Shown: positions 5,386 to 27,150, counted from the stretch's first letter. The stretch: 64,000 bases of DNA from an uncultured Solirubrobacterales bacterium (GCA_963774075.1 CAVZDP010000009.1:171103-235102); one strand, 5' to 3'. A program made the numbers and translations. The notes: generated by a model from the letters alone, not told the origin.

Positions 5386-8300
5386 GTGAGAAAAGCGGGA
5401 ACTGCAAGCGGCTATAGGCGGCTCGTGTCGTGGCTTGGCGCTTCAGCCCTGCTGGTGGCGCTCATCTTGATCGCGACTGTGCCGGCCGCGGCAACACCGA
5501 GCTCCTGCGCCGCGATAGGCCTCGAGACCATCCAAACGGACAAGGCGGACTACGCCCCCGAGGAGACCGTGCACATGACCGGGACCGGCTACGCGCCGGC
5601 CTGCGACGTCGTGGTGCAGGTCACTCGCCCGAACGGGTCGATCGTGAAGGGCGATGGAAGCTTCGAGCCCGGCAGCGACACCGCCACCACCGACGGTGAC
5701 GGGAACCTCGTCTATGACTACATCCTCAACGGCATCCAGGGTGAATACGGCGTAGAAGTGCAGGGCGCCGACGGCAGCGTCCTGGCGACGACCAGCTTCA
5801 GCGACTCCGTGAGCGTCGTCTTGGAAGGCGGCGGAGACTGGAGTGCGACCGGAAGTACTTGCGCCACTCCCAACGACGCGATCTCGGACAACAACGTCCG
5901 AGCGTTGTGCGACTTCGGCGAGACCGTCGTCGGGCGAGATTTCGGCCTCCAGGCACAAGTACCTTCGTCTGCAACGGACATCAGTTTCGTTGCGATCGTC
6001 CGCGGGCGCGTGAGCAATGCCGACGACAACGACATCTTCGACGTCAGCCTCTCGCATGACGGCGGCACCAATTACACCTCTCCGGTCGTCGCCACCGACG
6101 CAGTAAACAACGTGATCCCCGCGGGAGCCGACCAAAACGTCGAGGCTCCGGCCGCCGGTACTACCGCCGCCTGTGCGGCCGGGAGCAACTTCGGGCGCAC
6201 CTGGACCTATTCGGAGCTCTCCGACGCGAACTTCCGGCTAAGGGTCGCTGCACACCCCAAGACCGTCGCGGGCACCGACGCGCTTCTCCAGCAGATGGAC
6301 ATCGACGACATCGACCTGGTCGTGTGCTACGCGGGGAGGTTCATCACCGCCGCTTCCGTCAGCGGGCCGCAGGCGAACAACCCTGGAACCCGGGACGTGT
6401 CGCTAACCGTCAATCACACCCTCGCTAACGGTTTCAGCGCAGCGACGGCCGACGATTGGGGCTCGACGGAGTACGAGATCGAGGGCCAAGGGTCGATCTG
6501 TTCCACCGTCCCGAATCCGGACGAGACCGGCAGCACCACCGACACTCACTCCATCCCCGTCGAGGCCCCGCTCGCGGCCGGTACCTACGACGTGACGATG
6601 CGGGCGTTCCGTGACGGAGCGTGCTCTCTGGGGGCGAGCGACCCGTGGGTGATCACGGACGGCATCACGGTCGATTCCAGCTTGCCGACCCTGCACAGGT
6701 CCTCCGAGAGTCAGACCTCCGCGACGTTCTCTCACGCTGTCTCCAGCGGCGGCGACCGTCTGCTCCTGGTGGCCGTGATGATCGACAGCATCGAGGACGC
6801 CACGTCCGTGACCTACGGCGGCGTGCCCCTCACGCACGAGTTCACACAGGCGGCCGGCGGTGGCACCAGCGATGGTCAAAGAGTTGAGATCTGGCGCCTC
6901 ACGAGTCCGCCGGTTGGAACCGCCAACGTCGTGGTCAACTTCGCGACCGCAGTCGCTTACAAGGGCGTCGCGGCGGCCAACTACACAGGTGTCGACCAGA
7001 GCGATCCAATCGGGGCCACCGGAGGGTCCCTCAGCGGCAGTGTCACTCTCACCACTACACAGAACGGGTCGACCATCTTCGGAGCGGTGTCGGCTGGCGG
7101 AGAGAATTCCGCCCCATTTACGACGACAAGCCCCGTTACGGAACTCTGGGACGCTGTCACCGGTGGCGGGAGCAATCAGGAGAGCACTGACGCCGGCCTG
7201 TGGGGCGGCCAGCGAGCGGCTCCATTCGCGGGTAGCAACACGATTGGCACAACGCACACGGGCCTCGCCGGCACAGATCTCGCCATCGCGGCTGTCGAGA
7301 TCAAGGCGCTCCAGACCGGCACGATCGTGATCACCAAGGACACGATCCCCGACGGCCCCCAGGACTTCACCTACACCGATGACATCGGCAACGGCTGCAC
7401 GATCGGCCCGCTCGACGACGACGCCGACAACACCAACCCCGCCAGCCAGACCTGCAACAACGTCACGCCCGGCCCCTACACGGTGACCGAGGACGACCCC
7501 ACGCCCGGCTTCGACCTCACCGACCTCGACTGCACCGACCCCGACAGCGGCACCACGACCTCGACCGCCAGCCGCCAGGCCTCGATCGACCTCGACCCGG
7601 GCGAGACCGTCAGCTGCACGTTCGAGAACACCGAGCGCGGCACGATCGTGATCACCAAGGACACGATCCCCGACGGCCCCCAGGACTTCACCTACACCGA
7701 TGACATCGGCAACGGCTGCACGATCGGCCCGCTCGACGACGACGCCGACAACACCAACCCCGCCAGCCAGACCTGCAACAACGTCACGCCCGGCCCCTAC
7801 ACGGTGACCGAGGACGACCCCACGCCCGGCTTCGACCTCACCGACCTCGACTGCACCGACCCCGACAGCGGCACCACGACCTCGACCGCCAGCCGCCAGG
7901 CCTCGATCGACCTCGACCCGGGCGAGACCGTCAGCTGCACGTTCGAGAACACCGAGCGCGGCACGATCGTGATCACCAAGGACACGATCCCCGACGGCCC
8001 CCAGGACTTCACCTACACCGATGACATCGGCAACGGCTGCACGATCGGCCCGCTCGACGACGACGCCGACAACACCAACCCCGCCAGCCAGACCTGCAAC
8101 AACGTCACGCCCGGCCCCTACACGGTGACCGAGGACGACCCCACGCCCGGCTTCGACCTCACCGACCTCGACTGCACCGACCCCGACAGCGGCACCACGA
8201 CCTCGACCGCCAGCCGCCAGGCCTCGATCGACCTCGACCCGGGCGAGACCGTCAGCTGCACGTTCGAGAACACCGAGCGCGGCACGATCGTGATCACCAA

Positions 8301-11280
8301 GGACACGATCCCCGACGGCCCCCAGGACTTCACCTACACCGATGACATCGGCAACGGCTGCACGATCGGCCCGCTCGACGACGACGCCGACAACACCAAC
8401 CCCGCCAGCCAGACCTGCAACAACGTCACGCCCGGCCCCTACACGGTGACCGAGGACGACCCCACGCCCGGCTTCGACCTCACCGACCTCGACTGCACCG
8501 ACCCCGACAGCGGCACCACGACCTCGACCGCCAGCCGCCAGGCCTCGATCGACCTCGACCCGGGCGAGACCGTCAGCTGCACGTTCGAGAACACCGAGCG
8601 CGGCACGATCGTGATCACCAAGGACACGATCCCCGACGGCCCCCAGGACTTCACCTACACCGATGACATCGGCAACGGCTGCACGATCGGCCCGCTCGAC
8701 GACGACGCCGACAACACCAACCCCGCCAGCCAGACCTGCAACAACGTCACGCCCGGCCCCTACACGGTGACCGAGGACGACCCCACGCCCGGCTTCGACC
8801 TCACCGACCTCGACTGCACCGACCCCGACAGCGGCACCACGACCTCGACCGCCAGCCGCCAGGCCTCGATCGACCTCGACCCGGGCGAGACCGTCAGCTG
8901 CACGTTCGAGAACACCGAGCGCGGCACGATCGTGATCACCAAGGACACGATCCCCGACGGCCCCCAGGACTTCACCTACACCGATGACATCGGCAACGGC
9001 TGCACGATCGGCCCGCTCGACGACGACGCCGACAACACCAACCCCGCCAGCCAGACCTGCAACAACGTCACGCCCGGCCCCTACACGGTGACCGAGGACG
9101 ACCCCACGCCCGGCTTCGACCTCACCGACCTCGACTGCACCGACCCCGACAGCGGCACCACGACCTCGACCGCCAGCCGCCAGGCCTCGATCGACCTCGA
9201 CCCGGGCGAGACCGTCAGCTGCACGTTCGAGAACACCGAGCGCGGCACGATCGTGATCACCAAGGACACGATCCCCGACGGCCCCCAGGACTTCACCTAC
9301 ACCGATGACATCGGCAACGGCTGCACGATCGGCCCGCTCGACGACGACGCCGACAACACCAACCCCGCCAGCCAGACCTGCAACAACGTCACGCCCGGCC
9401 CCTACACGGTGACCGAGGACGACCCCACGCCCGGCTTCGACCTCACCGACCTCGACTGCACCGACCCCGACAGCGGCACCACGACCTCGACCGCCAGCCG
9501 CCAGGCCTCGATCGACCTCGACCCGGGCGAGACCGTCAGCTGCACGTTCGAGAACACCGAGCGCGGCACGATCGTGATCGACAAGGACGCCGTACCAGAT
9601 GACCCGCAGGACTTCTCGTTCACGGGCGATTCGCCGATCGGCTCCTTCACGCTCGACGACGACGCCGACGGCACCAACCCGTCCTCGCGAAGCTTCCAGA
9701 TTCCGCCGGCGACCTACGACGTCACGGAAGGTGCGCTGGCGGGTTGGCTGCCTCCGAACATCAACTGCGCCGACCCGGACAGCGGGACGACGACAGACGT
9801 CCCCAACCGCACGGCCTCGATCGACCTCGACCCGGGCGAGACCGTGAGCTGCACGTTCACGAACGTGAAGGACACCGACGAGGACGGGATTCCGAACGTG
9901 GTCGACTGCACGCCGACTCTCGCCGACGACCATGTCGTCGACCCGGGCAACGTCGTCCCGGGAAGCTTCACGGGTAGCCGTCACAACACGCTCCAGGCGG
10001 CGGTCAACGCGGCGGCCGACAACCAGCTGATCAGCATGTACGCCAACACCACCGAGAACGTGGTCATCGGCGCGACTACCGGCTCCGGCAACAAGGACCT
10101 CCGCATCGAGGGCTGCGGCCACAAGGTGACGGCAGCCGATCCCTCCAAGCCGGCAATTCAGGCCGAGTCCTCGGCGGGCGCCGACGACGGCAACACCGGC
10201 AAGGGTGAGCGAGACATCCACATCGGCGACCTCGACGTGCGTGGATCGAGCTCGTCCTCCGGTTACCTGATCCAGACGAGCAAGGCCTCGTCCGGCACGT
10301 CGACCCTGCTGAAGGCAGTGCGATCCGAGAGCAACTCGATCGGAATCAAAATCGCCGGCCACGGAAACCACGTCCGCGGCTCCAACGGCGTCAAGCTCAA
10401 CTCCGGCGACGGCATTCAGGTGATCGGAAACAGCAACCTGATCGAGGAGAACCGCGTCGACGAGAACGGTGGCGACGGCATCGACGTCACCGGTAACTCA
10501 AACACGATCAAGAAGAGCAAGCTCGAGACCAACAACGCCGGAGACGGGATCAAGGTCGCTGGAAACTCGAACTCGCTGCCCGAGAACGACGTGTTCGACA
10601 GTGGCAGTGACGGCATCGACGTCACCGGGAACCTCAACGCGCTCACGAAGAACGACGTCGGCGACGCAGGCAAGGGCAACGGCGGAGATGGCATCAAGAT
10701 CACGGGCGACGGGAACCTGCTCGGCACGGCCGTGGCCGAGAACAGCATCTTCGCGAACACGGGCAGCGGTCTCGTCGTCAACGGAAACATGAACGCGCTC
10801 GTTAAGAACGTCGCGGGTGACCACAACAAGGGCAACGGCGGCGACGGCTTCCGCGTCAGCGGCTACGGCAATACGCTCACCGAGAACAAGGCGTGGGCGA
10901 ATGGCGGCGACGGTGTCGAGGTCAGCGGTGGCACCTCCGCCAAGCCGAACCGGCTGCTGAAGAACGTCGCGGGCGACTCGAACAAGGGCAACGGCGGCAA
11001 CGGATTCCTGCTCTCCGGCATCGGCAACGGCAACTCGGTCCCGATCGAGCTAGAGCAGAACACGGCCAAGAAGAACACGCTCGACGGCATCCGGGTCAAC
11101 GGCACGGGCTGGCAGCTCAAGAACAACATCAGCGGCGGCTCCGCCAGCGAGGACAACGGCGACTGCGAGTTCAGAGTCATCGCCGGCAACTTCAACGCCA
11201 CAGGCAACAAGGCGAACAACACGACGATCGCGGGTGCCAGCGGGAGCGCCTTCCCGACCGGATGCAGGGGGACGCCGTAA
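5386..11280 (+). CDS. Giant secreted surface protein 1 (signal peptide, unique N-terminal region, 7+1 Ig/prealbumin-like 107-aa repeats, C-terminal parallel beta-helix PbH1-type repeats)
   Basis: The ORF is open from 5266. In-frame GTG at 5386 follows AAGGAGGAAG and yields a signal-like N-terminus (LGASALLVALILIATVPAAA). Repeats end in the ETVSCTFENTE motif typical of prealbumin/SpaA-like folds. The C-terminus is a run of NxxGDGIxVxGNxN units typical of right-handed beta-helix proteins. Confidence 0.85.
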   Translation: MRKAGTASGYRRLVSWLGASALLVALILIATVPAAATPSSCAAIGLETIQTDKADYAPEETVHMTGTGYAPACDVVVQVTRPNGSIVKGDGSFEPGSDTATTDGDGNLVYDYILNGIQGEYGVEVQGADGSVLATTSFSDSVSVVLEGGGDWSATGSTCATPNDAISDNNVRALCDFGETVVGRDFGLQAQVPSSATDISFVAIVRGRVSNADDNDIFDVSLSHDGGTNYTSPVVATDAVNNVIPAGADQNVEAPAAGTTAACAAGSNFGRTWTYSELSDANFRLRVAAHPKTVAGTDALLQQMDIDDIDLVVCYAGRFITAASVSGPQANNPGTRDVSLTVNHTLANGFSAATADDWGSTEYEIEGQGSICSTVPNPDETGSTTDTHSIPVEAPLAAGTYDVTMRAFRDGACSLGASDPWVITDGITVDSSLPTLHRSSESQTSATFSHAVSSGGDRLLLVAVMIDSIEDATSVTYGGVPLTHEFTQAAGGGTSDGQRVEIWRLTSPPVGTANVVVNFATAVAYKGVAAANYTGVDQSDPIGATGGSLSGSVTLTTTQNGSTIFGAVSAGGENSAPFTTTSPVTELWDAVTGGGSNQESTDAGLWGGQRAAPFAGSNTIGTTHTGLAGTDLAIAAVEIKALQTGTIVITKDTIPDGPQDFTYTDDIGNGCTIGPLDDDADNTNPASQTCNNVTPGPYTVTEDDPTPGFDLTDLDCTDPDSGTTTSTASRQASIDLDPGETVSCTFENTERGTIVITKDTIPDGPQDFTYTDDIGNGCTIGPLDDDADNTNPASQTCNNVTPGPYTVTEDDPTPGFDLTDLDCTDPDSGTTTSTASRQASIDLDPGETVSCTFENTERGTIVITKDTIPDGPQDFTYTDDIGNGCTIGPLDDDADNTNPASQTCNNVTPGPYTVTEDDPTPGFDLTDLDCTDPDSGTTTSTASRQASIDLDPGETVSCTFENTERGTIVITKDTIPDGPQDFTYTDDIGNGCTIGPLDDDADNTNPASQTCNNVTPGPYTVTEDDPTPGFDLTDLDCTDPDSGTTTSTASRQASIDLDPGETVSCTFENTERGTIVITKDTIPDGPQDFTYTDDIGNGCTIGPLDDDADNTNPASQTCNNVTPGPYTVTEDDPTPGFDLTDLDCTDPDSGTTTSTASRQASIDLDPGETVSCTFENTERGTIVITKDTIPDGPQDFTYTDDIGNGCTIGPLDDDADNTNPASQTCNNVTPGPYTVTEDDPTPGFDLTDLDCTDPDSGTTTSTASRQASIDLDPGETVSCTFENTERGTIVITKDTIPDGPQDFTYTDDIGNGCTIGPLDDDADNTNPASQTCNNVTPGPYTVTEDDPTPGFDLTDLDCTDPDSGTTTSTASRQASIDLDPGETVSCTFENTERGTIVIDKDAVPDDPQDFSFTGDSPIGSFTLDDDADGTNPSSRSFQIPPATYDVTEGALAGWLPPNINCADPDSGTTTDVPNRTASIDLDPGETVSCTFTNVKDTDEDGIPNVVDCTPTLADDHVVDPGNVVPGSFTGSRHNTLQAAVNAAADNQLISMYANTTENVVIGATTGSGNKDLRIEGCGHKVTAADPSKPAIQAESSAGADDGNTGKGERDIHIGDLDVRGSSSSSGYLIQTSKASSGTSTLLKAVRSESNSIGIKIAGHGNHVRGSNGVKLNSGDGIQVIGNSNLIEENRVDENGGDGIDVTGNSNTIKKSKLETNNAGDGIKVAGNSNSLPENDVFDSGSDGIDVTGNLNALTKNDVGDAGKGNGGDGIKITGDGNLLGTAVAENSIFANTGSGLVVNGNMNALVKNVAGDHNKGNGGDGFRVSGYGNTLTENKAWANGGDGVEVSGGTSAKPNRLLKNVAGDSNKGNGGNGFLLSGIGNGNSVPIELEQNTAKKNTLDGIRVNGTGWQLKNNISGGSASEDNGDCEFRVIAGNFNATGNKANNTTIAGASGSAFPTGCRGTP
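7318..9564 (+). repeat. 7 x 321-bp nucleotide-identical in-frame tandem repeat (107 aa per unit), followed by a diverged 8th unit (9565-~9870)
   Basis: Units start at 7318, 7639, 7960, 8281, 8602, 8923 and 9244. The sequence text is the same in each unit. All antisense pseudo-ORFs recur with identical 71-aa translations at a 321-nt period. Confidence 0.95.
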
Positions 11281-11296
11281 GCATGAGGGGGCAACA

Positions 11297-14200
11297 ATGA
11301 CGAAGCGACTAAAACTCTTTTCGAGTCTCGTCCTCGCGACCGGCCTCTTGGCCGTGCTCGCGCCCTCACAGGCCGCAGCACACCCCGATCCCGACTGCAC
11401 CGCCCTCGGCGGCGTGATCACGCTCGCCGACGAGTGCGAGGTTCAGTCGAGCCAGACGGCCAAGGCCGGCACCTACAACATCTTCCACACGCTGATCATC
11501 AAGGCCGGCGTCCAGATCGACGCCACCACGCCCGGCACGGGCGGCATCACGATCAACATCAGTGGCGCCGGCAACGACCTGGTGATGGAGTCGGGCAGCG
11601 CGATCGAGGCAAACGACCCCTCGAGCCCCCCTAACGACAGCGCCCGCCCGATCACGATCACGGTTCCCGACGACATGACGATGATGGCCGGCAGCACGCT
11701 GGCGGAGAACAACTCTCAGGGCGGCTCGGGCGCCGACATCAGCCTGACGATCGGCGACGACTTCACGATGCAGTCGGGCTCGGAGATCTCGAGCTCGCGC
11801 AATGCCGGCACCACGACCGGCTCCGGCGGCGACATCGCGATCGACGTCGGCGGCGACATGCTGATGGAGGCCAACACCATCATCCACGCCGATGGCCAGA
11901 ACCCGGCCGCAGGCGACGTCACGATCAACGTCGACGGCGACATGACGATGAAGGGCACCGCCGGCCCGCTCGCCGGGGCCATCATCTCCGCCACGGGCAG
12001 CTTCGGCGACACCGCCGGCGACATCACGATCCACGTCGGCAACTTCCCCAACATCCCGCCCACGGGCGTCTTCACTCAGGAGACCGGCGCGGTCGTGACC
12101 GCGAGCTCGGGTGGGCCGGCTGGCGAGATCATCATCACCGCCGGCCGGGAGATGTCGGTCGACGGCTCCGTGCTCTCGGAGTCCGGTCAATCGGGCACCG
12201 GAGCCATCCAGCCGCCCGGCGGCGGCCCGATCACGCTCCAGGCGGGCTGCGGGCTCACCGTCTCCGACACCGGCCTCGTCTCCTCCAGGGGACAGGATCC
12301 GGGCGCCGACCTCGTCCACCTCGAGGCCTGCGAGGTCTTGATCCAGGGCGTCGTTCGCTCCTTCGCACCTGGCGCGGGACACGTGATCCCGACCGGCGGC
12401 AACCGCTGCAACGACGACACCACCGCCCACCCCACCAACGGCGCCGCGGGCTTCACGGGCTGCGTTGAGATCTGGGCCAAGAACGTCACGATCGACAACA
12501 CCGGCACCCACAACGGCGAGGTCCACACCGACGGCATCCGCAACCCGATGCGGGGCTGGGTCGACGTCTTCGCCCAGAAGGACGTCTCGATCCTGGGCGA
12601 CCCGACCACGCCCTACCCGACCACCTTCGACGCCAACGCCTTCGTCTACACCCCGCCCTACGCGGTGCACGCCAACGCCTGCCCGGCAAGCGACGGCCAG
12701 GCGCCCTGCTCGAACTCCTTCGGCGGCCTGATCACGGTCAAGTCGCTCGATGGCAAGGTCGCAGCCTCCGGGCGCGCCCTGCAGGCGACCGCCACCGCGC
12801 TCGGCGCAGACGGCGGTGACATCGTCGTCGAGGCGGGCGGAGCGGCTCCGGCGGGCGAGGTCGACCTCGACAGCGCGAGCCTGCAGGCGACCGGGCCCTC
12901 GGGCTCCAACACCGCCGGCGGCTCGGTCAGCGTTCGCTCCTGGGAGGACGACGTGCTCGGCGTCCCGCCGGGCGAGATCAAGGTCGCCGGCGACGGTCTC
13001 ACCGATCCCGGCACGATCACCCTCACCGCCTGCATGGACGTCAACTACACAGGCTCCACCGATCGCACCCCGACCGTCAACGAGGGTGCACCCTTCTGCG
13101 GCACTGGGCCGACGATTCCGGCCAGCGTGCTCTCCAACTTTGCGCTCCGCGCAGCGCTCTGGGACGCCTGCGACCCCCAGGAGGGAGTGAAGAAGGGCCA
13201 GAAGTTCAACGACCTCGACGGTGACGGCGTCAAGGACGCTGGCGAGCCGGGCCTACCGAACTGGACCATCCACATCTTCGGCACCACCAACGACAACGTG
13301 GTCGTCCACGAGGACATCCTCACCGACGCCAACGGCAACTACGAGATCACCCTTCCCCCCGGCACCTACACCGCCTGCGAGGAGCTTCAGACGGGCTGGG
13401 TGCAGACCTTCCCGAACCCCGGAAGCGACGGCAACGCCTGCGAGGGCCACAACCACCTCGGCAGCCCCGGCGCTGCCGGCTACACGTTCACGATCGTCGG
13501 TGGAGATACCCACGAGGGGAACGACTTTGGGAACCGCGAGAAGCCGCTCGAGTGCCCCGAGGACCCGGGTCGGGCCTCCTCGATCACGAGGATGGTCGAC
13601 GAGGACGGCACCTCGCACGCGGTGTCGGTGCCGAACCACCTGACCGTGCAGGAGGCCTACAACGCCGCCCAGGCCAGCGGCAACCCGAACGAGGTCATCG
13701 GCATGTTCTCCGAGACGACCGAGAACGTCGTCCTCAACGGGCCGAAGCGGGTGACCATCACGCAGTGCACGACCGCCAAGGTCACCGCAGCCGACAATTC
13801 GAAGCCGGTCTGGGACATCGGGCTCGGCGCCGGGCGCCTGCTGATCGTTGGCCCCGACTCCGTCGGCGGGACGATCGGCTGGAACGTCGCCGGCAACGGC
13901 CACGAGCTCAAGGGGCTGCGGGCCGAGGGCGCGAGCCAGTACGGCATTCGGGTGCTCGGCAACAACAACTCCGTCAGCTACAACTCGGTCGACACGAGCC
14001 CTGTCGGGATTCGAGTCGAGGGCGATTACACCGACCTTCGCGGCGGCACGGTCGAGAGGAACACCGGCGATGGCGTCCAGCTCGGCTCGACGGCCAACAA
14101 CAACACGTTCCGGACGGCGAACGTCCAGAGCAACGGCGGGAACGGGATCCTCGTCGAGGGCCCGACCAACACGATTCGCGACAACGGCCGGATCGACCTC

Positions 14201-14629
14201 AACACCCTGAACGGGATCCTCGTCGCGAGCGCCGGCAACACGATCCTCAACAACTCCGCCGCGAGCGACAACAACAAGGGCAACGGTCAGGACGGATTCA
14301 AGGTAACCGGGCCCAACAACTCCATAGAGAACAACAGGGCAAGCGACAACGGCGGCGACGGATTCGACGTCGGCGGCGGCTCGAGCAGCGCACTTGCGAA
14401 CAAGCTGAAGAACAACCAGAGCAACCTGACGGGGGTAGGCGGCACGAAGGAGAACACGGGGGCTGAGTACCGCCTCCTCAACTGGGTGAAGAACAACGCC
14501 GGCGGCAACAAGGCCGACGGGATCGTCGTGCCCAAGACCACGAGCCCGACGAAGTGCAACTCGGCCGCCACTCAATTCCCGGCCACCAACGCGACATCCA
14601 ACTTCACGACGGCGCAGGCCTGCGAGTAG
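11297..14629 (+). CDS. Giant secreted surface protein 2 (signal peptide, beta-helix-like N-terminal domain, SdrD-B/prealbumin-like domain, PbH1 C-terminal cassette A)
   Basis: ATG at 11297 (MTKRLKLFSSLVLATGLLAVLAPSQAAA, signal-like) follows a GAGGGGG RBS. Contains GGxITINIxG-type repeats and KFNDLDGDGVKDAGEPGLPNWTIHIF (SdrD B-like). C-terminal NxxGDGxxV repeats. Tail is KCNSAATQFPATN...ACE. Confidence 0.85.
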   Translation: MTKRLKLFSSLVLATGLLAVLAPSQAAAHPDPDCTALGGVITLADECEVQSSQTAKAGTYNIFHTLIIKAGVQIDATTPGTGGITINISGAGNDLVMESGSAIEANDPSSPPNDSARPITITVPDDMTMMAGSTLAENNSQGGSGADISLTIGDDFTMQSGSEISSSRNAGTTTGSGGDIAIDVGGDMLMEANTIIHADGQNPAAGDVTINVDGDMTMKGTAGPLAGAIISATGSFGDTAGDITIHVGNFPNIPPTGVFTQETGAVVTASSGGPAGEIIITAGREMSVDGSVLSESGQSGTGAIQPPGGGPITLQAGCGLTVSDTGLVSSRGQDPGADLVHLEACEVLIQGVVRSFAPGAGHVIPTGGNRCNDDTTAHPTNGAAGFTGCVEIWAKNVTIDNTGTHNGEVHTDGIRNPMRGWVDVFAQKDVSILGDPTTPYPTTFDANAFVYTPPYAVHANACPASDGQAPCSNSFGGLITVKSLDGKVAASGRALQATATALGADGGDIVVEAGGAAPAGEVDLDSASLQATGPSGSNTAGGSVSVRSWEDDVLGVPPGEIKVAGDGLTDPGTITLTACMDVNYTGSTDRTPTVNEGAPFCGTGPTIPASVLSNFALRAALWDACDPQEGVKKGQKFNDLDGDGVKDAGEPGLPNWTIHIFGTTNDNVVVHEDILTDANGNYEITLPPGTYTACEELQTGWVQTFPNPGSDGNACEGHNHLGSPGAAGYTFTIVGGDTHEGNDFGNREKPLECPEDPGRASSITRMVDEDGTSHAVSVPNHLTVQEAYNAAQASGNPNEVIGMFSETTENVVLNGPKRVTITQCTTAKVTAADNSKPVWDIGLGAGRLLIVGPDSVGGTIGWNVAGNGHELKGLRAEGASQYGIRVLGNNNSVSYNSVDTSPVGIRVEGDYTDLRGGTVERNTGDGVQLGSTANNNTFRTANVQSNGGNGILVEGPTNTIRDNGRIDLNTLNGILVASAGNTILNNSAASDNNKGNGQDGFKVTGPNNSIENNRASDNGGDGFDVGGGSSSALANKLKNNQSNLTGVGGTKENTGAEYRLLNWVKNNAGGNKADGIVVPKTTSPTKCNSAATQFPATNATSNFTTAQACE
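11327..13534 (+). repeat. Copy A of a 2208-bp perfect segmental duplication (offset 3360 bp)
   Basis: Matches 14687-16894. Identical translations in all frames listed in the ORF track. The first mismatches are at 11318/11323/11326 on the 5' side and at 13535 on the 3' side. Confidence 0.9.
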
Positions 14630-17600: not shown

Positions 17601-18052
17601 GGGCCTTCGCCAACGGCGGCGACGGCATCGACGTCACCGGCAACACCAACCGCCTGCTGAAGAACGTCGCCGGCGACTCGGGCAAGGGCAACGGGGCCGA
17701 CGGCATTCACCTCGCGGGCTCCGGGGCGACGATTCAGGAGAACAAGGCCAGCAGCAACAAGACGACCAGCACGACCGGTGACGGGTTCGACATCAGCGGC
17801 GGCGTGAGCGCCGCTCCGAACAAGCTGAAGAACAACTCCAGCAACACCGGATCCTCGGGAAGCTCGACCCACGAGAACGGCGGCGCAGAGTACCGCCTGC
17901 TCAACTACGTGCGAAACGACGGGGGTGGCAACAAGGCCGACGGCGTAGTCGTCCCCAAGACGACGAGCCCGGTGAAGTGCAATGCCGGCGCCACTCAGTT
18001 CCCGGCCATGAATGTCACGCTCAACCTCATGTCGGCGACCGCGTGCGAGTAG
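14657..18052 (+). CDS. Giant secreted surface protein 3 (N-terminal ~745 aa identical to protein 2, different PbH1 C-terminal cassette B)
   Basis: 1131-aa ORF starting MTKRLKLLSSLVLATG. Diverges from gene 2 right after ...HEGNDFGN. C-terminal tail KCNAGATQFPAMN...ACE is homologous to the gene 2 tail. Confidence 0.85.
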   Translation: MTKRLKLLSSLVLATGLLAVLAPSQAAAHPDPDCTALGGVITLADECEVQSSQTAKAGTYNIFHTLIIKAGVQIDATTPGTGGITINISGAGNDLVMESGSAIEANDPSSPPNDSARPITITVPDDMTMMAGSTLAENNSQGGSGADISLTIGDDFTMQSGSEISSSRNAGTTTGSGGDIAIDVGGDMLMEANTIIHADGQNPAAGDVTINVDGDMTMKGTAGPLAGAIISATGSFGDTAGDITIHVGNFPNIPPTGVFTQETGAVVTASSGGPAGEIIITAGREMSVDGSVLSESGQSGTGAIQPPGGGPITLQAGCGLTVSDTGLVSSRGQDPGADLVHLEACEVLIQGVVRSFAPGAGHVIPTGGNRCNDDTTAHPTNGAAGFTGCVEIWAKNVTIDNTGTHNGEVHTDGIRNPMRGWVDVFAQKDVSILGDPTTPYPTTFDANAFVYTPPYAVHANACPASDGQAPCSNSFGGLITVKSLDGKVAASGRALQATATALGADGGDIVVEAGGAAPAGEVDLDSASLQATGPSGSNTAGGSVSVRSWEDDVLGVPPGEIKVAGDGLTDPGTITLTACMDVNYTGSTDRTPTVNEGAPFCGTGPTIPASVLSNFALRAALWDACDPQEGVKKGQKFNDLDGDGVKDAGEPGLPNWTIHIFGTTNDNVVVHEDILTDANGNYEITLPPGTYTACEELQTGWVQTFPNPGSDGNACEGHNHLGSPGAAGYTFTIVGGDTHEGNDFGNRKLECEKGPVKDVLNPTTGRFPGNAGPDVIVRIDLGQSVQDAVDNVSDVNGDQKLIILVLKDGTGQLGGHTSQEVVIDDAYSLPFGLIGCSVTLHDPTPNDANPTIRIASSAGSPQNIFLMDLHAADSKAAGIAVEGNGRYLRNENVLNNAVGFKITGNANTVHNGAATGNTGAGANVQGDSNVLTDTDSYSNGVGFQVTGNNNQLLKLDAGDKGKGNLGDGVNVNGANNLLSEIGAFANGGDGIDVTGNTNRLLKNVAGDSGKGNGADGIHLAGSGATIQENKASSNKTTSTTGDGFDISGGVSAAPNKLKNNSSNTGSSGSSTHENGGAEYRLLNYVRNDGGGNKADGVVVPKTTSPVKCNAGATQFPAMNVTLNLMSATACE
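14687..16894 (+). repeat. Copy B of the 2208-bp perfect segmental duplication
   Basis: See 11327-13534. Confidence 0.9.
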
Positions 18053-18150
18053 TGGAGCCCTGCACTTGACAGCCAAACCCCGACAGCGAGAAGGTAGCGA
18101 TGGCAAGGTTGCACGCGAGCCGGGTCGGGCTCGCCACGTCAGGAGGACAC

Positions 18151-18180
18151 ATGTATCTCACATCCGAGCGCCTCAGGTGA
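18151..18180 (+). other. 9-codon upstream ORF (MYLTSERLR) with a strong SD; its stop overlaps the GTG start of giant gene 4
   Basis: AGGAGG at 18141-18146, ATG at 18151 in the +1 frame relative to the giant ORF. TGA at 18178-18180 overlaps GTG at 18177-18179 (GTGA). Alternatively this is another 1-nt indel and 18151 is the true start. Confidence 0.3.
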
Positions 18181-20168
18181 ATCGTTCCAAGGGTGGGAGT
18201 CGCCGCGGCCGCGGCGTCGTGACTCTCCTGGCAACGCTCGTCCTGTCGGCTGTTTTCGCAGGGTCGGCCTCGGCCGACCAGGCCGGCTGCGACCTGGGCA
18301 CCTACAACGTGATCTTTGACGAGTGCCAGATCTCCGGTCCCACGACGGCCACCGGAGTGAAGAACTTCCACCACTCGGTGCACATGCTGCCCGGCTCGAG
18401 CATCAATGCGAGCGGAGGCGGAATCACCCTCAACATCAATGGCGCCTCCGGGCTCGACTTCACGATGGACACGACCAGCTCCGTCATCGAGGCCAACGAC
18501 GATGGCCTGCCCTCGGGTGCGAGCGCGAGCCCAATCAACATCAACGCGACCGGCGACATGGAGATGCAGGCCGGCGCCAGGATCCTCGCCGAGAACGCGA
18601 ACAACGGCGGAAGCGGCGGCAACATCACGATCGACGTCGACGGCGACCTGACGATGGCCGGAGCGGTCGGGCTGGTGCCGGGCGCGATCATCTCGACTCG
18701 CAAGTCCGCTGGCGCCGGCGACACAGGCTTGGGGGGCAACATTACGATCATGGTCGGCGACTCCACGGCGGCGACCGGCACCTTCTTCATGGGCGGCGGC
18801 TCCACCACCTACGGCGCGGAGACCGGCGCGAAGCTGATCGCCACCGGCACAGGACCGGCCGGTGACATAACGGTCAACGCCGGCCGCACCTATACGACCG
18901 AGCCCGGCTCGGTCGTCGAGGCGGGGGATGGCAACGGGACCACGGTCCAGCAGGGCGGCAAGATCTTTCTCGCCTCCGGCTGCGGCCTGACGACCAAGGG
19001 CCGCGTGACCAGCAAGGGCACGGACCCGGGCGCCGACCTCGTTCACATCGAGGCCTGCGACGTCCTCATCGCCGGCCTCGTCGAGTCGACCGGCAGGGCG
19101 CACGCGACCGGGATCAGGAACAGCTGCGACAACGTGAACGACGGCCTCGCCGGGGAGGTCCTCCGGCCCGGCAAGCCGGCTGAGTCGACGGCCTGCATCG
19201 AGGTCTGGGCCAACAACGTCACCATCGACTCGACCAACGGCAACGCCGGCGAGCTGAACGCGGACATCGGCAACGGGGGGAGCGGGGGCAGATCATGGAT
19301 AGACGTCTTTGCCTTCACCGACCTGACTGTCAAGGACGGCAGCGGCAACAACCGCACCAGCAGCAACGGCGGCGGTTCCTACCTGAACACCTTCGCGGTG
19401 CACGCGAAGTCGATCGGTGGCTCTGACAACACTCCGAACACGATCACCGCCAAGGCCAAGACGGGCGTGCTGACGGTTACCGGCGACGCCTTCCAAGCGG
19501 GCTCGGACGGCAATGGCTCCAACGGCGGCTCGATCGTGCTTCAGAGCTCCGGCAACGCCACCCTGGATACCTCGCTCGAGGCGTCCTCCGGCGGCGGTGC
19601 TGCGGGCGACGGCGGCTCGATCGCGGTCAGGTCGTTCAACGGCAACATCAGCTGGCAGAACGGCGAGGGCGACGTCACTGGGAGCCCAAACGGGACGATC
19701 TCGCTGACCTCCTGCGGCACGGTCAACACCGCCGGGTCGAACTTCCACAGCGTGTCTGTCACGACGGCGAGTTCCTGCGGCGGCATGCCCTCGATCCCCG
19801 GGGTGAGCCCCGACTACACGAATGGTTTCTTCGACAGCGCCACGCGCTGGGACAATTGCAACGAAGAGGGAACGATCATCGTCGAGAAGCAGACCGTCCC
19901 GGACGGTGCGACGGGCAACTTCACGTTCACGGGCGACGCGGCCGGCACGATCTCCGACGGCCAGCAGATCGTCGTATCCGGGCTGACAGCCGGTACCTAC
20001 ACCTCCACGGAGGCAGACCCCTCGCCGGGTTTCGACCTCACCGACATTCAGTGCACGGACTCTGACAACGCGGGCGTTGCGAGCTCGGGCGACACTCAGA
20101 CTCGAACGGCGACGATCAACCTCGACCCCGGCGAGACCGTCAGCTGCACGTTCGAGAACACCGAGCGC

Positions 20169-23100
20169 GGCAAGGTCGTGATCACCAAGGACACGATCCC
20201 CAACGGCCCCCAGGACTTCACCTACACCGACACCATCCCCAACGGCTGCCAGATCGGCCCCCTCGACGACGACTCCGACAACACCAACCCCAACAACACG
20301 ACCTGCCTCAACGTCACCCCCGGCACCTACAGCGTGACCGAGGACGACCCGACGCCGGGCTTCGACCTCACCGACCTCACCTGCACCGACTCTGACGCCG
20401 GCGGCACCGACTCCACGGGCTCGACCGCCACCCGCACGGCGACGATCAACCTCGACCCCGGCGAGACCGTCAGCTGCACGTTCGAGAACACCGAGCGCGG
20501 CAAGGTCGTGATCACCAAGGACACGATCCCCAACGGCCCCCAGGACTTCACCTACACCGACACCATCCCCAACGGCTGCCAGATCGGCCCCCTCGACGAC
20601 GACTCCGACAACACCAACCCCAACAACACGACCTGCCTCAACGTCACCCCCGGCACCTACAGCGTGACCGAGGACGACCCGACGCCGGGCTTCGACCTCA
20701 CCGACCTCACCTGCACCGACTCTGACGCCGGCGGCACCGACTCCACGGGCTCGACCGCCACCCGCACGGCGACGATCAACCTCGACCCCGGCGAGACCGT
20801 CAGCTGCACGTTCGAGAACACCGAGCGCGGCAAGGTCGTGATCACCAAGGACACGATCCCCAACGGCCCCCAGGACTTCACCTACACCGACACCATCCCC
20901 AACGGCTGCCAGATCGGCCCCCTCGACGACGACTCCGACAACACCAACCCCAACAACACGACCTGCCTCAACGTCACCCCCGGCACCTACAGCGTGACCG
21001 AGGACGACCCGACGCCGGGCTTCGACCTCACCGACCTCACCTGCACCGACTCTGACGCCGGCGGCACCGACTCCACGGGCTCGACCGCCACCCGCACGGC
21101 GACGATCAACCTCGACCCCGGCGAGACCGTCAGCTGCACGTTCGAGAACACCGAGCGCGGCAAGGTCGTGATCACCAAGGACACGATCCCCAACGGCCCC
21201 CAGGACTTCACCTACACCGACACCATCCCCAACGGCTGCCAGATCGGCCCCCTCGACGACGACTCCGACAACACCAACCCCAACAACACGACCTGCCTCA
21301 ACGTCACCCCCGGCACCTACAGCGTGACCGAGGACGACCCGACGCCGGGCTTCGACCTCACCGACCTCACCTGCACCGACTCTGACGCCGGCGGCACCGA
21401 CTCCACGGGCTCGACCGCCACCCGCACGGCGACGATCAACCTCGACCCCGGCGAGACCGTCAGCTGCACGTTCGAGAACACCGAGCGCGGCAAGGTCGTG
21501 ATCACCAAGGACACGATCCCCAACGGCCCCCAGGACTTCACCTACACCGACACCATCCCCAACGGCTGCCAGATCGGCCCCCTCGACGACGACTCCGACA
21601 ACACCAACCCCAACAACACGACCTGCCTCAACGTCACCCCCGGCACCTACAGCGTGACCGAGGACGACCCGACGCCGGGCTTCGACCTCACCGACCTCAC
21701 CTGCACCGACTCTGACGCCGGCGGCACCGACTCCACGGGCTCGACCGCCACCCGCACGGCGACGATCAACCTCGACCCCGGCGAGACCGTCAGCTGCACG
21801 TTCGAGAACACCGAGCGCGGCAAGGTCGTGATCACCAAGGACACGATCCCCAACGGCCCCCAGGACTTCACCTACACCGACACCATCCCCAACGGCTGCC
21901 AGATCGGCCCCCTCGACGACGACTCCGACAACACCAACCCCAACAACACGACCTGCCTCAACGTCACCCCCGGCACCTACAGCGTGACCGAGGACGACCC
22001 GACGCCGGGCTTCGACCTCACCGACCTCACCTGCACCGACTCTGACGCCGGCGGCACCGACTCCACGGGCTCGACCGCCACCCGCACGGCGACGATCAAC
22101 CTCGACCCCGGCGAGACCGTCAGCTGCACGTTCGAGAACACCGAGCGCGGCAAGGTCGTGATCACCAAGGACACGATCCCCAACGGCCCCCAGGACTTCA
22201 CCTACACCGACACCATCCCCAACGGCTGCCAGATCGGCCCCCTCGACGACGACTCCGACAACACCAACCCCAACAACACGACCTGCCTCAACGTCACCCC
22301 CGGCACCTACAGCGTGACCGAGGACGACCCGACGCCGGGCTTCGACCTCACCGACCTCACCTGCACCGACTCTGACGCCGGCGGCACCGACTCCACGGGC
22401 TCGACCGCCACCCGCACGGCGACGATCAACCTCGACCCCGGCGAGACCGTCAGCTGCACGTTCGAGAACACCGAGCGCGGCAAGGTCGTGATCACCAAGG
22501 ACACGATCCCCAACGGCCCCCAGGACTTCACCTACACCGACACCATCCCCAACGGCTGCCAGATCGGCCCCCTCGACGACGACTCCGACAACACCAACCC
22601 CAACAACACGACCTGCCTCAACGTCACCCCCGGCACCTACAGCGTGACCGAGGACGACCCGACGCCGGGCTTCGACCTCACCGACCTCACCTGCACCGAC
22701 TCTGACGCCGGCGGCACCGACTCCACGGGCTCGACCGCCACCCGCACGGCGACGATCAACCTCGACCCCGGCGAGACCGTCAGCTGCACGTTCGAGAACA
22801 CCGAGCGCGGCAAGGTCGTGATCACCAAGGACACGATCCCCAACGGCCCCCAGGACTTCACCTACACCGACACCATCCCCAACGGCTGCCAGATCGGCCC
22901 CCTCGACGACGACTCCGACAACACCAACCCCAACAACACGACCTGCCTCAACGTCACCCCCGGCACCTACAGCGTGACCGAGGACGACCCGACGCCGGGC
23001 TTCGACCTCACCGACCTCACCTGCACCGACTCTGACGCCGGCGGCACCGACTCCACGGGCTCGACCGCCACCCGCACGGCGACGATCAACCTCGACCCCG

Positions 23101-24455
23101 GCGAGACCGTCAGCTGCACGTTCGAGAACACCGAGCGCGGCAAGGTCGTGATCACCAAGGACACGATCCCCAACGGCCCCCAGGACTTCACCTACACCGA
23201 CACCATCCCCAACGGCTGCCAGATCGGCCCCCTCGACGACGACTCCGACAACACCAACCCCAACAACACGACCTGCCTCAACGTCACCCCCGGCACCTAC
23301 AGCGTGACCGAGGACGACCCGACGCCGGGCTTCGACCTCACCGACCTCACCTGCACCGACTCTGACGCCGGCGGCACCGACTCCACGGGCTCGACCGCCA
23401 CCCGCACGGCGACGATCAACCTCGACCCCGGCGAGACCGTCAGCTGCACGTTCGAGAACACCGAGCGCGGCAAGGTCGTGATCACCAAGGACACGATCCC
23501 CAACGGCCCCCAGGACTTCACCTACACCGACACCATCCCCAACGGCTGCCAGATCGGCCCCCTCGACGACGACTCCGACAACACCAACCCCAACAACACG
23601 ACCTGCCTCAACGTCACCCCCGGCACCTACAGCGTGACCGAGGACGACCCGACGCCGGGCTTCGACCTCACCGACCTCACCTGCACCGACTCTGACGCCG
23701 GCGGCACCGACTCCACGGGCTCGACCGCCACCCGCACGGCGACGATCAACCTCGACCCCGGCGAGACCGTCAGCTGCACGTTCGAGAACACCGAGCGCGG
23801 CAAGGTCGTGATCACCAAGGACACGATCCCCAACGGCCCCCAGGACTTCACCTACACCGACACCATCCCCAACGGCTGCCAGATCGGCCCCCTCGACGAC
23901 GACTCCGACAACACCAACCCCAACAACACGACCTGCCTCAACGTCACCCCCGGCACCTACAGCGTGACCGAGGACGACCCGACGCCGGGCTTCGACCTCA
24001 CCGACCTCACCTGCACCGACTCTGACGCCGGCGGCACCGACTCCACGGGCTCGACCGCCACCCGCACGGCGACGATCAACCTCGACCCCGGCGAGACCGT
24101 CAGCTGCACGTTCGAGAACACCGAGCGCGGCAAGGTCGTGATCACCAAGGACACGATCCCCAACGGCCCCCAGGACTTCACCTACACCGACACCATCCCC
24201 AACGGCTGCCAGATCGGCCCCCTCGACGACGACTCCGACAACACCAACCCCAACAACACGACCTGCCTCAACGTCACCCCCGGCACCTACAGCGTGACCG
24301 AGGACGACCCGACGCCGGGCTTCGACCTCACCGACCTCACCTGCACCGACTCTGACGCCGGCGGCACCGACTCCACGGGCTCGACCGCCACCCGCACGGC
24401 GACGATCAACCTCGACCCCGGCGAGACCGTCAGCTGCACGTTCGAGAACACCGAG
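20169..24455 (+). repeat. 13 x 330-bp nucleotide-identical in-frame tandem repeat (110 aa per unit; the last unit lacks its final codon)
   Basis: Units start at 20169 + n*330. Identical antisense 74-aa pseudo-ORFs recur at 20327...23957, plus a variant at 24287. A diverged unit 0 lies at ~19870-20168. Confidence 0.95.
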
Positions 24456-26161
24456 GACGCCACCGTCACGATCACCAAGGACGCGATCCCGGACGGTCCG
24501 CCAGGACTTCAGCTTCAGCGACCACCGGCCTCAACGGCGCCTGATCGGCCCTTCACGCTCGAGCGACGACGGCAACGAGACAAACGAGCCGGCGACTCCC
24601 GGCACCGGCGGCGACTGGCCGAAGACCAAGAAGTTCACGTTCTCCGGCTCCGACTTCGGAGCGAAGACGATCACCGGGTCGGTCCCGAGCGGCTGGACGA
24701 ACTCCGCCTACAGCTTGCTCCGAGGGCACCAAGAGTGGAACGACGACCGCGAACTTCACGGTCGACCCAGGCGACACGATCAGCGTGCAACTACGAGAAC
24801 ACCAAGGACGCCACCGTCACGATCACCAAGGACGCGATCCCGGATTCCGGCCAGGACTTCCGCTTCTCGACCACCGGCTCAGGCCTCGCGCCCTTCACGC
24901 TCGAGGACGACGGCAACGAGACAAACGAGCCGGCGACTCCCGGCACCGGCGGCGACTGGCCGAAGACCAAGAAGTTCACGTTCACTGGCTCCGACTTCGG
25001 GCGAAGACGATCACCGAGTCGTCCCGCGCGGCTGGACGAACTCCGCCTACAGTTGCTCCGAGGGCACCAAGAGTGGAACGACGACCGCGAACTTCACGGT
25101 CGACCCAGGCGACACGATCACGTGCAACTACGAGAACACCAAGGACGCCACCGTCACGATCACCAAGGACGCGATCCCGGACTCAGGCCAGGACTTCAGC
25201 TTCACGACCTCCGGCTCGGGCCTCTCGAGCTTCACGCTCGAGGACGACGGCAACGAGACAAACGAGCCGGCGACTCCCGGCACCGGCGGCGACTGGCCGA
25301 AGACCAAGAAGTTCACGTTCTCCGGCTCCGACTTCGGAGCGAAGACGATCACCGAGTCGGTCCCGAGCGGCTGGACGAACTCCGCCTACAGCTGCTCCGA
25401 GGGCACCAAGAGTGGAACGACGACCGCGAACTTCACGGTCGACCCAGGCGACACGATCACGTGCAACTACGAGAACAAGAAGAACGCGACCATCACGATC
25501 ACCAAGGACGCGATCCCGGATAGCGCGCAGAACTTCCCCTTCGGCTCTACTGGCCTCGCCCCATTCACGCTCGAGGACGACGGCAACGAGACAAACGAGC
25601 CGGCGACTCCCGGCACCGGCGGCGACTGGCCGAAGACCAAGAAGTTCACGGTCACTGGCTCCAACTACCCCTTCGGGCAGAAGACGATCACCGAGGTCGT
25701 CCCCGCAGGCTGGACGAACTCCGCCTACAGTTGCTCCGAGGGCACCAAGAGTGGAACGACGACCGCGAACTTCACGGTCGACCCAGGCGACACGATCACG
25801 TGCAACTACGAGAACACCAAGGACGCCACCGTCACGATCACCAAGGACGCGATCCCGGATTCCGGCCAGGACTTCAGCTTCTCGACCACCGGCTCAGGCC
25901 TTCGGGCCCTTCACGCTCGAGGACGACGGCAACGAGACAAACGAGCCGGCGACTCCCGGCACCGGCGGCGACTGGCCGAAGACCAAGAAGTTCACGTTCT
26001 CCGGCTCCGACTTCGGAGCGAAGACGATCACCGAGTCGGTCCCGAGCGGCTGGACGAACTCCGCCTACAGCTGCTCCGAGGGCACCAAGAGTGGAACGAC
26101 GACCGCGAACTTCACGGTCGACCCAGGCGACACGATCACGTGCAACTACGAGAACAAGAAG
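24456..26161 (+). repeat. Second repeat family R2, 5 units of ~339 bp (113 aa: DATVTITKDAIPDSGQDF...DDGNETNEPATPGTGGDWPKTKKFTF...CSEGTKSGTTTANFTVDPGDTITCNYENTK), imperfect and carrying indels
   Basis: Unit starts are 24456, 24807, 25144, 25483 and 25822. Unit lengths are 351, 337, 339, 339 and 340 bp. Confidence 0.85.
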
Positions 26162-27150
26162 AACGCGACCGTGACGGTCTACAAGTACAAGGACCTCAAC
26201 GGCAGCGGCAGCAAGGACCCGAGCGAGCCCTTCCTCAGCGGCTGGACCATCAAGATCTACCAGGGATCGTCGACCACGCCGCTGGCGACCCAGACCACGA
26301 ACGGCTCGGGGCAGGCGACCTTCTCGGTGAAGCCCGACCAGGCCTATCGCATCTGTGAGACGCTCCAGTCGGGATGGTTCAACACCGACCCCGGCGATGT
26401 GCCGCAGGGCACCGATCCGTGCAAGATGACAACCACCCTGGGAGCGGACCAGGCAGCCATCCTCTACTTCGGCAATCGCAAGGCGCTGACCACGGGTGCG
26501 AGAACGAAGGGCTTCTGGCGCAACAACAACGGGCAGGGCGTCATCACGGCGTCCTGTAGCCCCAGCGGCAAGCCATCGCTGTACTCGTTCCTAACGCAGT
26601 ACAACCCGTTCAAAGACCTGACATCCAGCAGCTGCAGTGCGATTGCCGGCTACGTCACGAACATCGTCGACGCGGCCGACTCATCGGGTACCTCGATGAA
26701 CCCGATGCTGAAGGCCCAGATGCTCTCTACCGCGCTTGACGTCTACTTCAGCGACCCCGCCCTGGGCTGGTCGTCCAGCGTGAACTCCTTCATCCCGAAC
26801 ACGACGATAGGTGGCATCACCATCGACCTTCAACACGTCTGCGCCATGTTCGACAGCAGCGCCGACCCTGCGGTCTGCACGGGCTCGTTCCGCGACGCGG
26901 GCGAGTGTGCGTTCGGCGGTGCCGACAGCATGACGGTGTCGCAGATGCTGGCCTATGCAGCGAGTAAAGCGGCGGTGGCGACATCGGCCAACCCGCTCGC
27001 CTCGCCCTGGTACGAGCAGGTCAAGACGACCCAGGAGTGCGCCAAGGACGCATTCGATGCCATCAACAACGAGGTTGCGTTCGGCCCGTAACGCAGCGCT
27101 TTGACTCCACGCACCCGATCGCGCCGGTTTCTGGGTAGGGTTCCTACGCG

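Follow-up and report, generated by a model that had tools for sequence, protein, structure and literature searches.

Giant modular genes in an uncultured Solirubrobacterales bacterium: a cross-phyla pair with predicted beta-helix heads beside candidate periscope-like stalk proteins

Introduction

Do four giant genes lying head to tail in an uncultured bacterium encode four independent proteins, or one extracellular system built from common, recombining parts? The question is raised by a window of 64,000 nucleotides (the whole stretch of DNA analysed here, with positions counted from its first letter) of an uncultured Solirubrobacterales bacterium (GCA_963774075.1, CAVZDP010000009.1:171103-235102). 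A first-pass annotation, made from the sequence alone, had described positions 5386-27091 of its + strand as four giant secreted proteins, here g1 to g4, assembled from shuffled modules: A to E and two unique end domains. With moderate confidence, we propose that g1-g4 are clustered paralogs, probably transcribed together, whose products are Sec-exported extracellular proteins, acidic, rich in cysteine and rod-shaped, that resemble fibrillar adhesins and periscope proteins. To our knowledge, the surface proteins of Thermoleophilia are almost unstudied, and so are those of the other uncultured phyla from soil and groundwater in which the family described below occurs.

Results

Four co-oriented genes with modules in common occupy 5386-27091 on the + strand. 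Three are intact open reading frames (ORFs): g1 (5386-11280, 1964 aa, with a GTG start after AAGGAGG), g2 (11297-14629, 1110 aa) and g3 (14657-18052, 1131 aa). Their products match gene calls on a 428-kb NCBI/ENA contig exactly, and each is a singleton at 90% identity. The annotated reading frames thus stand for g1-g3 and fail for g4 (18177-27091, +), a disrupted gene of ~2970 aa if repaired that is not one ORF. The spacers are as short as annotated, at 16 (g1/g2), 27 (g2/g3) and 124 nt (g3/g4). Because a terminator scan places no terminator-like site on the + strand between the genes (its sites are on the minus strand only), co-transcription of g1-g4 appears plausible; a promoter scan returned no sigma-70-like site, and these scans are uninformative.

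The pair g2-g3 gives the cluster its wider context. g2 consists of a signal peptide, module A (11381-13156), an SdrD B-type domain (SdrD_B; module C, 13172-13531) and a D2-type stretch of PbH1 beta-helix repeats (module D, 13577-14626) that ends in the conserved ...GGNKADG...KC...FPA...CE. g3 has g2's signal peptide, module A (14741-16516) and module C (16532-16906), followed by a D3-type beta-helix (16907-18049). Full-length alignment of both with 32 homologues gives identities of 34-52%, and 34 full-length-like members share the whole g2 architecture, its invariant cysteines and its C-terminal motif. From this alignment (A1) we define an A-C-D family by a GxDPGADLVHLExC core with invariant cysteines, an SdrD_B domain and PbH1 repeats with the conserved end. 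g2 and g3 carry all of these parts together with the signal peptide, whereas g4 shares A only and g1 D only.

Among species-representative genomes, 37 loci carry the family; they belong to at least ten phyla (with Nitrospirota, Acidobacteriota, Methylomirabilota, Chloroflexota, Actinomycetota, Planctomycetota, Verrucomicrobiota, the candidate phyla radiation (CPR), Bacteroidota and Binatia represented), and our overall count for the family is at least 12. Nearly all of the 126 homologues of g3 place module A directly behind the N-terminus; their C-terminal partners vary and include type IX secretion system (T9SS) sorting domains, DUF11 and CARDB. Same-strand tandem arrays of 2-4 paralogs are common among the comparison loci (L-numbers, which denote loci carrying relatives of the cluster genes or of their neighbours) and occur in L001, L005, L008, L009, L010, L011, L014, L015, L029, L034 and L035, with four genes in L005, three each in L009, L011 and L015, and two in six other loci. 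In the window and in L001, L005, L009, L029 and L034, the D2-type gene comes first and the D3-type gene second. No common accessory gene for secretion or anchoring was found near family members, and flanking genes are unrelated between loci (L005 and L009 were inspected for accessories).

Because architecture, tandem arrays and D2-D3 order recur across loci, we interpret the g2-g3 pair, judged by its sequence relatives, as an ordinary conserved unit of an uncharacterised multi-phylum family, and g1 and g4 as local elaborations. Comparison across genomes thereby maps module order and tandem arrangement and recovers the g2/g3 layout in relatives. The first-pass annotation had held its surface-system proposal to be endangered if the modules mapped cleanly onto one well-characterised adhesin family: the recurrence of architecture and tandem layout across phyla is indeed found, and the family concerned is an uncharacterised one.

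The two genes of this pair are partly the same sequence. A block of 2208 bp (11327-13534 = 14687-16894, +), covering the end of the signal peptide and modules A and C, is 100% identical between them; blastn aligns the genes at 99.78% over 2249 bp, with base differences only at 11285-11326 and from 13535 onward. Identity stops abruptly at the C/D junction, beyond which the D2-type and D3-type modules are only 40% identical. Similarity between adjacent paralogs ends at the same junction in a Rokubacteria metagenome-assembled genome (MAG; L034, 92.8% over 2272 bp, 9557-11795 vs 12556-14792) and in a Chloroflexia MAG (L029, 91.7% over the C region, 2011-2494 vs 5316-5804), and such junction-bounded similarity is absent in L005 and L009. 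Because the D types are both of old origin and the A-C parts are young, the A-C part of g2/g3 appears to have been converted or replaced, as has happened repeatedly in different lineages.

Homogenisation of a second kind marks g1 and g4, in which periodicity and Tandem Repeats Finder (TRF) reveal perfect tandem arrays, as annotated. The g1 array (7317-9579, +) holds 7.05 units of 321 bp and the g4 array (20106-24455, +) 13.2 units of 330 bp, which encode domains of 107 and 110 aa, respectively, with four cysteines each. Units are 100% identical inside each array (7 x 321 bp, 13 x 330 bp) and 76% (nucleotide) or 78% (amino acid) identical between arrays; edge units are diverged, including an eighth g1 unit at 9565-9870. 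These domains, annotated as the four-cysteine repeat module B, belong to Pfam SpaA_4, which matches 8 stretches in g1 and 14 in g4. Strand composition over the g4 array (20001-24000) is extreme, with a GC skew of -0.31 and an AT skew of +0.40, and is milder in the g1 array; the skew probably arises from repeat codons rich in Thr, Asp, Asn and Pro (ACC, GAC, AAC, CCC) and not from replication. Next to the perfect g4 array lie five R2 units of 337-351 bp (24456-26178, +), previously set apart as module E. They match SpaA_4 (E 1.4e-21), and also SpaA_2, and are 35% identical to B; on the strength of that SpaA_4 match and identity, R2 is best regarded as a diverged SpaA_4 domain and not as a new module class.

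The four genes are thus related through modules in common, in keeping with the earlier view that they are not independent. The stronger notion of a recombination-driven, cassette-variable system divides in two: footprints of homologous recombination and concerted evolution are present, and those of programmed switching (silent cassettes, a recombinase, long inverted repeats) are not. We considered programmed inversion or cassette switching and rejected it, as the inverted repeats are short and imperfect, no recombinase lies within 5 kb, and none of the genes is a silent cassette, all four having a start and a signal peptide of their own. Ordinary homologous recombination is enough to explain the footprints, and nothing points to a programmed cassette system. 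The collections searched hold no relatives closer than 55-79% identity, and metagenome scans for the B repeat gave no match to its DNA pattern and only 39-40% relatives for the protein query.

What the modules are bears on what the proteins do. Module A is present, as annotated, in g2 and g3 (local hidden Markov model, E 1e-204) and in g4 (E 7e-127), where the copy A' (18276-19868) is 37% identical to those of g2/g3; it is absent from g1 and has no sequence relative in Pfam, NCBIfam or the PDB. An AlphaFold2 (AF2) model built from 50 sequences (predicted local distance difference test score, pLDDT, 86.4; predicted template modelling score, pTM, 0.87) has short regular strands. All top-50 Foldseek matches to it in the PDB are right-handed beta-helix proteins, and none is significant; they include the two-partner secretion (TPS) domains of EtpA and HMW1, tailspikes, Ag43 and PL6 lyases, with the EtpA TPS domain best (E 0.015, prob 0.69, template modelling score, TM, 0.22-0.29). 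The model therefore suggests that module A is of the beta-helix class, without a close solved relative. A full-length AF2 model of g3 has a mean pLDDT of 79.3, and Foldseek returned matches to its module C only.

Modules C and D are better anchored in known families. Module C scores as SdrD_B (PF17210) in g2 (E 4.6e-10) and g3 (E 1.7e-9), with further matches by PDB profile (E 1.5e-16) and Foldseek (E 1e-4) to PDB 10ps/4jdz, and the g4 copy (26179-26482) lies below the gathering score; the annotated SdrD_B-like domain is thus recovered in all three genes. Module D exceeds the Pfam Beta_helix (PF13229) cutoff of 25.9 bits in g1 (45.0) and g2 (48.9); that of g3 has no Pfam match, yet it is homologous to the D modules of g2 (E 5e-41) and g1 (E 3e-33), which bears out the annotation of D in g1, g2 and g3. 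Full-length g3 matched no Pfam family (hmmscan, E<=0.01), and its residues 621-1131 alone give SdrD_B at E 1.7e-9. Because the identical region of g2 scores in its full-length context, this miss looks like a filter or bias artefact, of relevance to repeat-rich beta-helix proteins in general.

Conservation divides these helices. Across the family, module A keeps its GxDPGADLVHLExC core, four or more cysteines and several Asp, His, Glu and Trp residues, and module D keeps only Gly and Asn; since A retains polar residues and cysteines while D retains only these two, A may be the functional head and D a structural part. The same residues could instead belong to secreted carbohydrate-active enzymes, in which A and/or D would be lyases, hydrolases or epimerases, the Ig-like arrays spacers or carbohydrate-binding parts, and the cluster an expansion of substrate range. 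Consistent with this are the near-invariant Asp, His, Glu and Trp of A, Foldseek matches of A to PL6 lyases, a fucoidan lyase, a galacturonidase and phage depolymerase tailspikes, the Beta_helix match of D with weak profile matches to AlgG C5-epimerase and pectate lyase (E 0.002-0.08), and the fact that no anchor was found in the cluster proteins. These matches, however, reach the level of fold class only (TM 0.1-0.3, E>0.01); D keeps just the Gly/Asn ladder residues and has no DPHD-type epimerase motif; no sugar-uptake or catabolic genes adjoin the cluster; and DNA-identical repeats in a stalk of 8-20 Ig-like domains typify surface fibrils and not soluble enzymes (PMC8201768). We consider the enzyme explanation unlikely.

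g1 and g4 differ from the pair mainly at their ends. In g1, a signal-like N-terminus (aa 1-36) and an N-region (aa 37-644) precede the eight SpaA_4 domains, a DTDEDGIPN linker and a module D beta-helix that runs to the C-terminus. The N-region has no match in Pfam, NCBIfam or the PDB and a single full-length relative (P0127, 55% identical); only its first ~130 aa, an Ig-like domain, recur elsewhere, sometimes directly before module A in Actinomycetota loci. g4 begins with a signal-like N-terminus (18177-18275) and module A', continues through one diverged and 13 identical SpaA_4 domains, five R2 units and the SdrD_B-like domain, and closes with a C-terminal domain of its own. Among the comparison loci, one gene (L041, positions 2400-9720; contig_51223 of European Nucleotide Archive (ENA) assembly ERZ25039536) unites a g1-type Ig-like N-domain, an SdrD_B-like stalk with repeats of ~380 bp at 84-86% identity, and a g4-type C-terminal domain 77% identical to that of g4; frame breaks divide it into at least seven ORF fragments.

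That C-terminal domain (26483-27088, +; alignment A3) spans 202 aa, TGARTKGFW...MLKAQML...DVYFSDPA...DAINNEVAFGP-COOH, and has no match in Pfam, NCBIfam or the PDB. It was annotated as one of two unique end domains, which comes close for the g1 N-region, with its one full-length relative, and fails for g4: the domain has 519 cluster representatives at E<=1e-3 and 419 at E<=1e-10, the nearest 79% identical. In 139 of the top 150 it ends within 5 aa of the protein C-terminus. It occurs stand-alone or behind SdrD_B, Big_1, HYR, DUF5979 or CarboxypepD_reg stalks or a pro-kumamolisin protease, and none of the 150 proteins carries module A. A constant domain at the C-terminus of varied cargo is a pattern familiar from anchoring and sorting domains, and on that ground the g4 domain may be an anchor, possibly a non-covalent one; we offer this as a lead. 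A polymorphic toxin was considered for g4 and rejected, since a conserved C-terminal domain with variable N-terminal cargo is the reverse of that arrangement.

Whether g4 can be expressed at all depends on a short, damaged region. Frame 0 is open from 18177 to 25523, but the protein register is lost at 24497; three-frame reading and tblastn trace it through frame 1 (24502-24712), frame 2 (24713-24784), frame 0 (24786-25000), frame 2 (25001-25021), frame 1 (25021-25902) and frame 2 (25910-27091, ending at a stop). A frame plot of third-position G+C (GC3) has the same switches in g4 and none in g1-g3. About nine single-base indels at 24.49-25.91 kb force these six frame changes, so that the ~2970-aa ORF of the first-pass annotation is not encodable as sequenced. 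A MAFFT alignment of the sibling R2 units places ~6 insertions in the first unit, two deletions in the second and one insertion in the fifth, accompanied by few substitutions. The 5' end is odd as well: a mini-ORF of nine codons (18151-18180, +; MYLTSERLR*) behind a strong Shine-Dalgarno (SD) sequence, AGGAGG at 18140-18145, overlaps the g4 GTG start with its TGA (GTGA), and that GTG has no clear SD sequence itself. Either the two reading frames are translationally coupled, or one more indel conceals an ATG start (MYLTSERLR + NRSKGG...).

We regard local error in a long-read consensus as the probable cause of the frameshifts, and a real pseudogene as the less probable one, because the breaks start right after the 4.35-kb perfect array and because homologous genes in L001 and L041, which come from related ENA long-read-style assemblies, are riddled with frame breaks. 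A second frameshifted gene at ~30.2 kb, which would have gauged the indel rate of the assembly, found no support. If g4 were a genuine decaying pseudogene, the functional system would be limited to g1-g3, with the stalk and C-terminal domain of g4 left as relics. The six net frame changes of the deposited sequence fit such decay, as do the weak start context and the mini-ORF over the GTG. It is harder to reconcile with correctly framed pieces that have no in-frame stops or surplus substitutions, with a GC3 near 0.9 in the locally coding frame throughout, with 13 intact upstream units and an intact 1.2-kb 3' part, with a C-terminal domain still 79% identical to its nearest relative, and with indels without substitutions, which are more typical of consensus error. 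Decay of g4 is therefore possible but, in our estimate, doubtful.

Error could also reach further than g4, with the perfect arrays, the 2.2-kb block and the clustered frameshifts all being largely artefacts of assembly or polishing and the true locus having diverged repeats, another copy number and an intact g4. All indels fall in a 1.45-kb stretch of a second repeat family, directly behind the perfect array. Single-base insertions with no accompanying substitutions make up most of them, and two occur at sites where sibling units differ, which resembles a hybrid consensus. Homologous genes on contigs of ERZ25039536 (L041) and ERZ25039541 (L001) have many frame breaks, and g1-g3 and the flanking genes have none. 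Set against this, each array is bordered by distinct, diverged units and by unique sequence. Since the D modules and 5' ends of g2 differ from those of g3, two copies must exist, and junction-bounded similarity of paralogs recurs at 92-93% in independent assemblies of other phyla, so homogenisation is real even if the 100% is overstated. Such wholesale artefact is conceivable, and we lean against it.

Export is indicated for each protein by one hydrophobic segment only, which is N-terminal and has a basic n-region and an AxA-type c-region (putative cleavage contexts PAAA/T, QAAA/H and ASA/D), in agreement with the signal-like N-termini annotated before. Twin-arginine-like motifs precede the hydrophobic core in g1 (YRRLVSW, 5386-5500) and g4 (SRRGRGVV, 18177-18275). 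We infer Sec export and, more cautiously, location or retention at the cell surface from these features. Inspection of motifs and hydrophobicity in g1-g4 found no LPXTG-like motif near the C-termini, no lipobox and no C-terminal hydrophobic helix, which upholds and extends the annotated lack of LPXTG and lipobox anchors; domain searches found no S-layer homology (SLH) or other S-layer anchoring domain; and the cluster flanks hold no sortase, TpsB or barrel gene. All four proteins are strongly acidic, with D+E far above K+R.

This acidity would also suit wall components. The surface layers of archaea and bacteria include proteins with PbH1 beta-helix or Ig-like repeats, and Foldseek weakly listed SlaA for module C. 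The cluster might thus encode abundant, self-assembling structural envelope proteins of an S-layer or sheath, not adhesins. We think this very improbable: the proteins have neither SLH nor another S-layer anchoring domain, a set of four distinct giant paralogs whose stalks vary in length does not resemble lattice-forming subunits, and the family spans phyla whose envelopes differ greatly, CPR among them as well as Bacteroidota, where members have T9SS tails.

The acyl-CoA synthetase beside the cluster is 80-90% identical to proteins named Solirubrobacterales or Solirubrobacteraceae (Thermoleophilia, Actinomycetota), which makes a Solirubrobacterales-like host likely. Two loci with an acyl-CoA synthetase 89% identical to it (L039, L040) have no neighbours in common with the window, which leaves no orthologous locus for comparison. 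G+C is 62-72% in the window and, at 62-65%, slightly lower in its right half than in its left. The right half holds mobile-element genes, namely DUF772 transposase ORFs at 32793-33392 (-, 199 aa) and 50597-52621 (-, 674 aa), and a phage-integrase-like ORF at 54019-55140 (+). Other probable secreted or surface-type genes encode an FG-GAP repeat protein (60209-61825, +), an arylsulfotransferase-like protein (61841-63937, -) and a DUF4331 protein beside a TPR protein (35345-36967, -).

Discussion

We propose that the core of the cluster is the g2/g3 pair, in which a signal peptide would be followed by a right-handed beta-helix head of ~500-590 aa (A, with conserved Cys pairs around the GxDPGADLVHLExC core), an SdrD_B Ig-like spacer and a PbH1 module D with a C-terminal cap. 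g1 and g4 would be lineage-specific elaborations that join D (g1) or A (g4) to a long SpaA_4 stalk and other end domains. Unequal crossover and gene conversion would keep the stalk units of each gene identical, and would have overwritten the A-C part of g2/g3; as a consequence, the stalks should differ in length, and the end domains in how far they reach, as in periscope proteins and fibrillar adhesins. We think it likely that the proteins attach to, or organise, surfaces or a polysaccharide matrix, and they may bind a ligand there. The locus illustrates concerted evolution in a natural setting at three levels, those of the unit, the array and the gene.

Several observations weigh against this proposal. 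g4 is not translatable as a single protein from this sequence. The Foldseek matches of module A fall short of significance even at their best (E 0.015), and its conserved polar residues would fit an enzyme too. With no known anchor (LPXTG, lipobox, SLH or transmembrane helix) and no nearby sortase, the proteins could be simply released, and they have no known adhesive domain, with no Pfam or NCBIfam entry matching module A, the N-region of g1 or the C-terminal domain of g4. Repeat identity may be overstated by long-read polishing, and variation in stalk length is a prediction drawn from the sequence, the nearest relatives being 55-79% identical.

What is new here, as far as sequence comparison reaches, is two well-delimited domain families absent from Pfam, NCBIfam and the PDB: module A and the g4 C-terminal domain. 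A bolder hypothesis, to which we give rather little weight, links three ideas: g2/g3 would be a new cross-phyla beta-helix class kept as a conserved D2/D3 pair, the g4 C-terminal domain would be a new anchoring or sorting domain, and in this genome both would have been recombined with periscope-type stalks. If so, homogenisation of A-C in Actinomycetota, Rokubacteria and Chloroflexia would point to selection for one head on two bases or to a heteromeric fibre, and the g4-type C-terminal domain would anchor or sort diverse cargo, including stalk proteins and a sedolisin-type protease. Should it prove to be an anchor, the domain would help to annotate hundreds of secreted proteins that have no known one; if not, the locus would be an ordinary, though large, cluster of repeat proteins.

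Several known systems resemble parts of the cluster. Module D of g1 and g2 shares the regular NxxGDGIxV rungs of PbH1/CASH proteins (PF13229; NosD-like proteins, AlgG, pectate lyases) but has no conserved catalytic motifs, and in the family it stands in a fixed A-C-D architecture with its own C-terminal cap. TPS substrates (EtpA, HMW1, FHA) and the autotransporters Ag43 and TibA have an N-terminal right-handed beta-helix head, as predicted for module A, and such adhesins are its best, though non-significant, Foldseek neighbours; the cluster differs in having no TpsB or beta-barrel partner in its flanks, a probably monoderm host, and another Cys pattern and core motif in module A. Sortase-assembled SpaA-type pilins have a C-terminal LPXTG signal and an adjacent pilin-specific sortase, both missing from the cluster. 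With Sdr/MSCRAMM proteins such as SdrD it shares a single B-type domain (module C), and Pfam and motif searches found no ligand-binding A region, Ser-Asp repeats or LPXTG.

Fibrillar adhesins come closer. SpaA is a major stalk domain in this group, and about half of fibrillar-adhesin-like proteins have no known anchor or adhesive domain (Monzon et al. 2021, PMC8286594). Like them, the cluster proteins would be monomeric giants with an N-terminal signal, stalks of the SpaA/SdrD_B clan and terminal non-stalk domains. Known stalk families are present (SpaA_4, SpaA, SdrD_B); a recognised adhesive domain is not, and the head A and the g4 C-terminal domain have no Pfam or NCBIfam entry. For g1 and g4, the nearest concept is that of periscope proteins, exemplified by Sgo_0707, SasG/Aap and Rib/alpha-C (Whelan et al. 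2021, PMC8201768). Surface anchoring with a distal functional domain, part of that concept, has no counterpart among the features searched for, as neither LPXTG nor a C-terminal hydrophobic segment, lipobox or flanking sortase was found. The repeats are SpaA_4 and not SHIRT, G5-E or Rib; they come from an uncultured bacterium of soil that resembles Thermoleophilia; and two such proteins are clustered with two non-repetitive paralogs. In both cases, however, DNA-identical Ig-like domains lie head to tail between the end domains of a secreted protein, with diverged edge units, in arrays as long as 7 x 321 bp in g1 and 13 x 330 bp in g4, and the gain and loss of repeats by homologous recombination known from periscope proteins is the mechanism expected from such arrays, those of g1 and g4 included.

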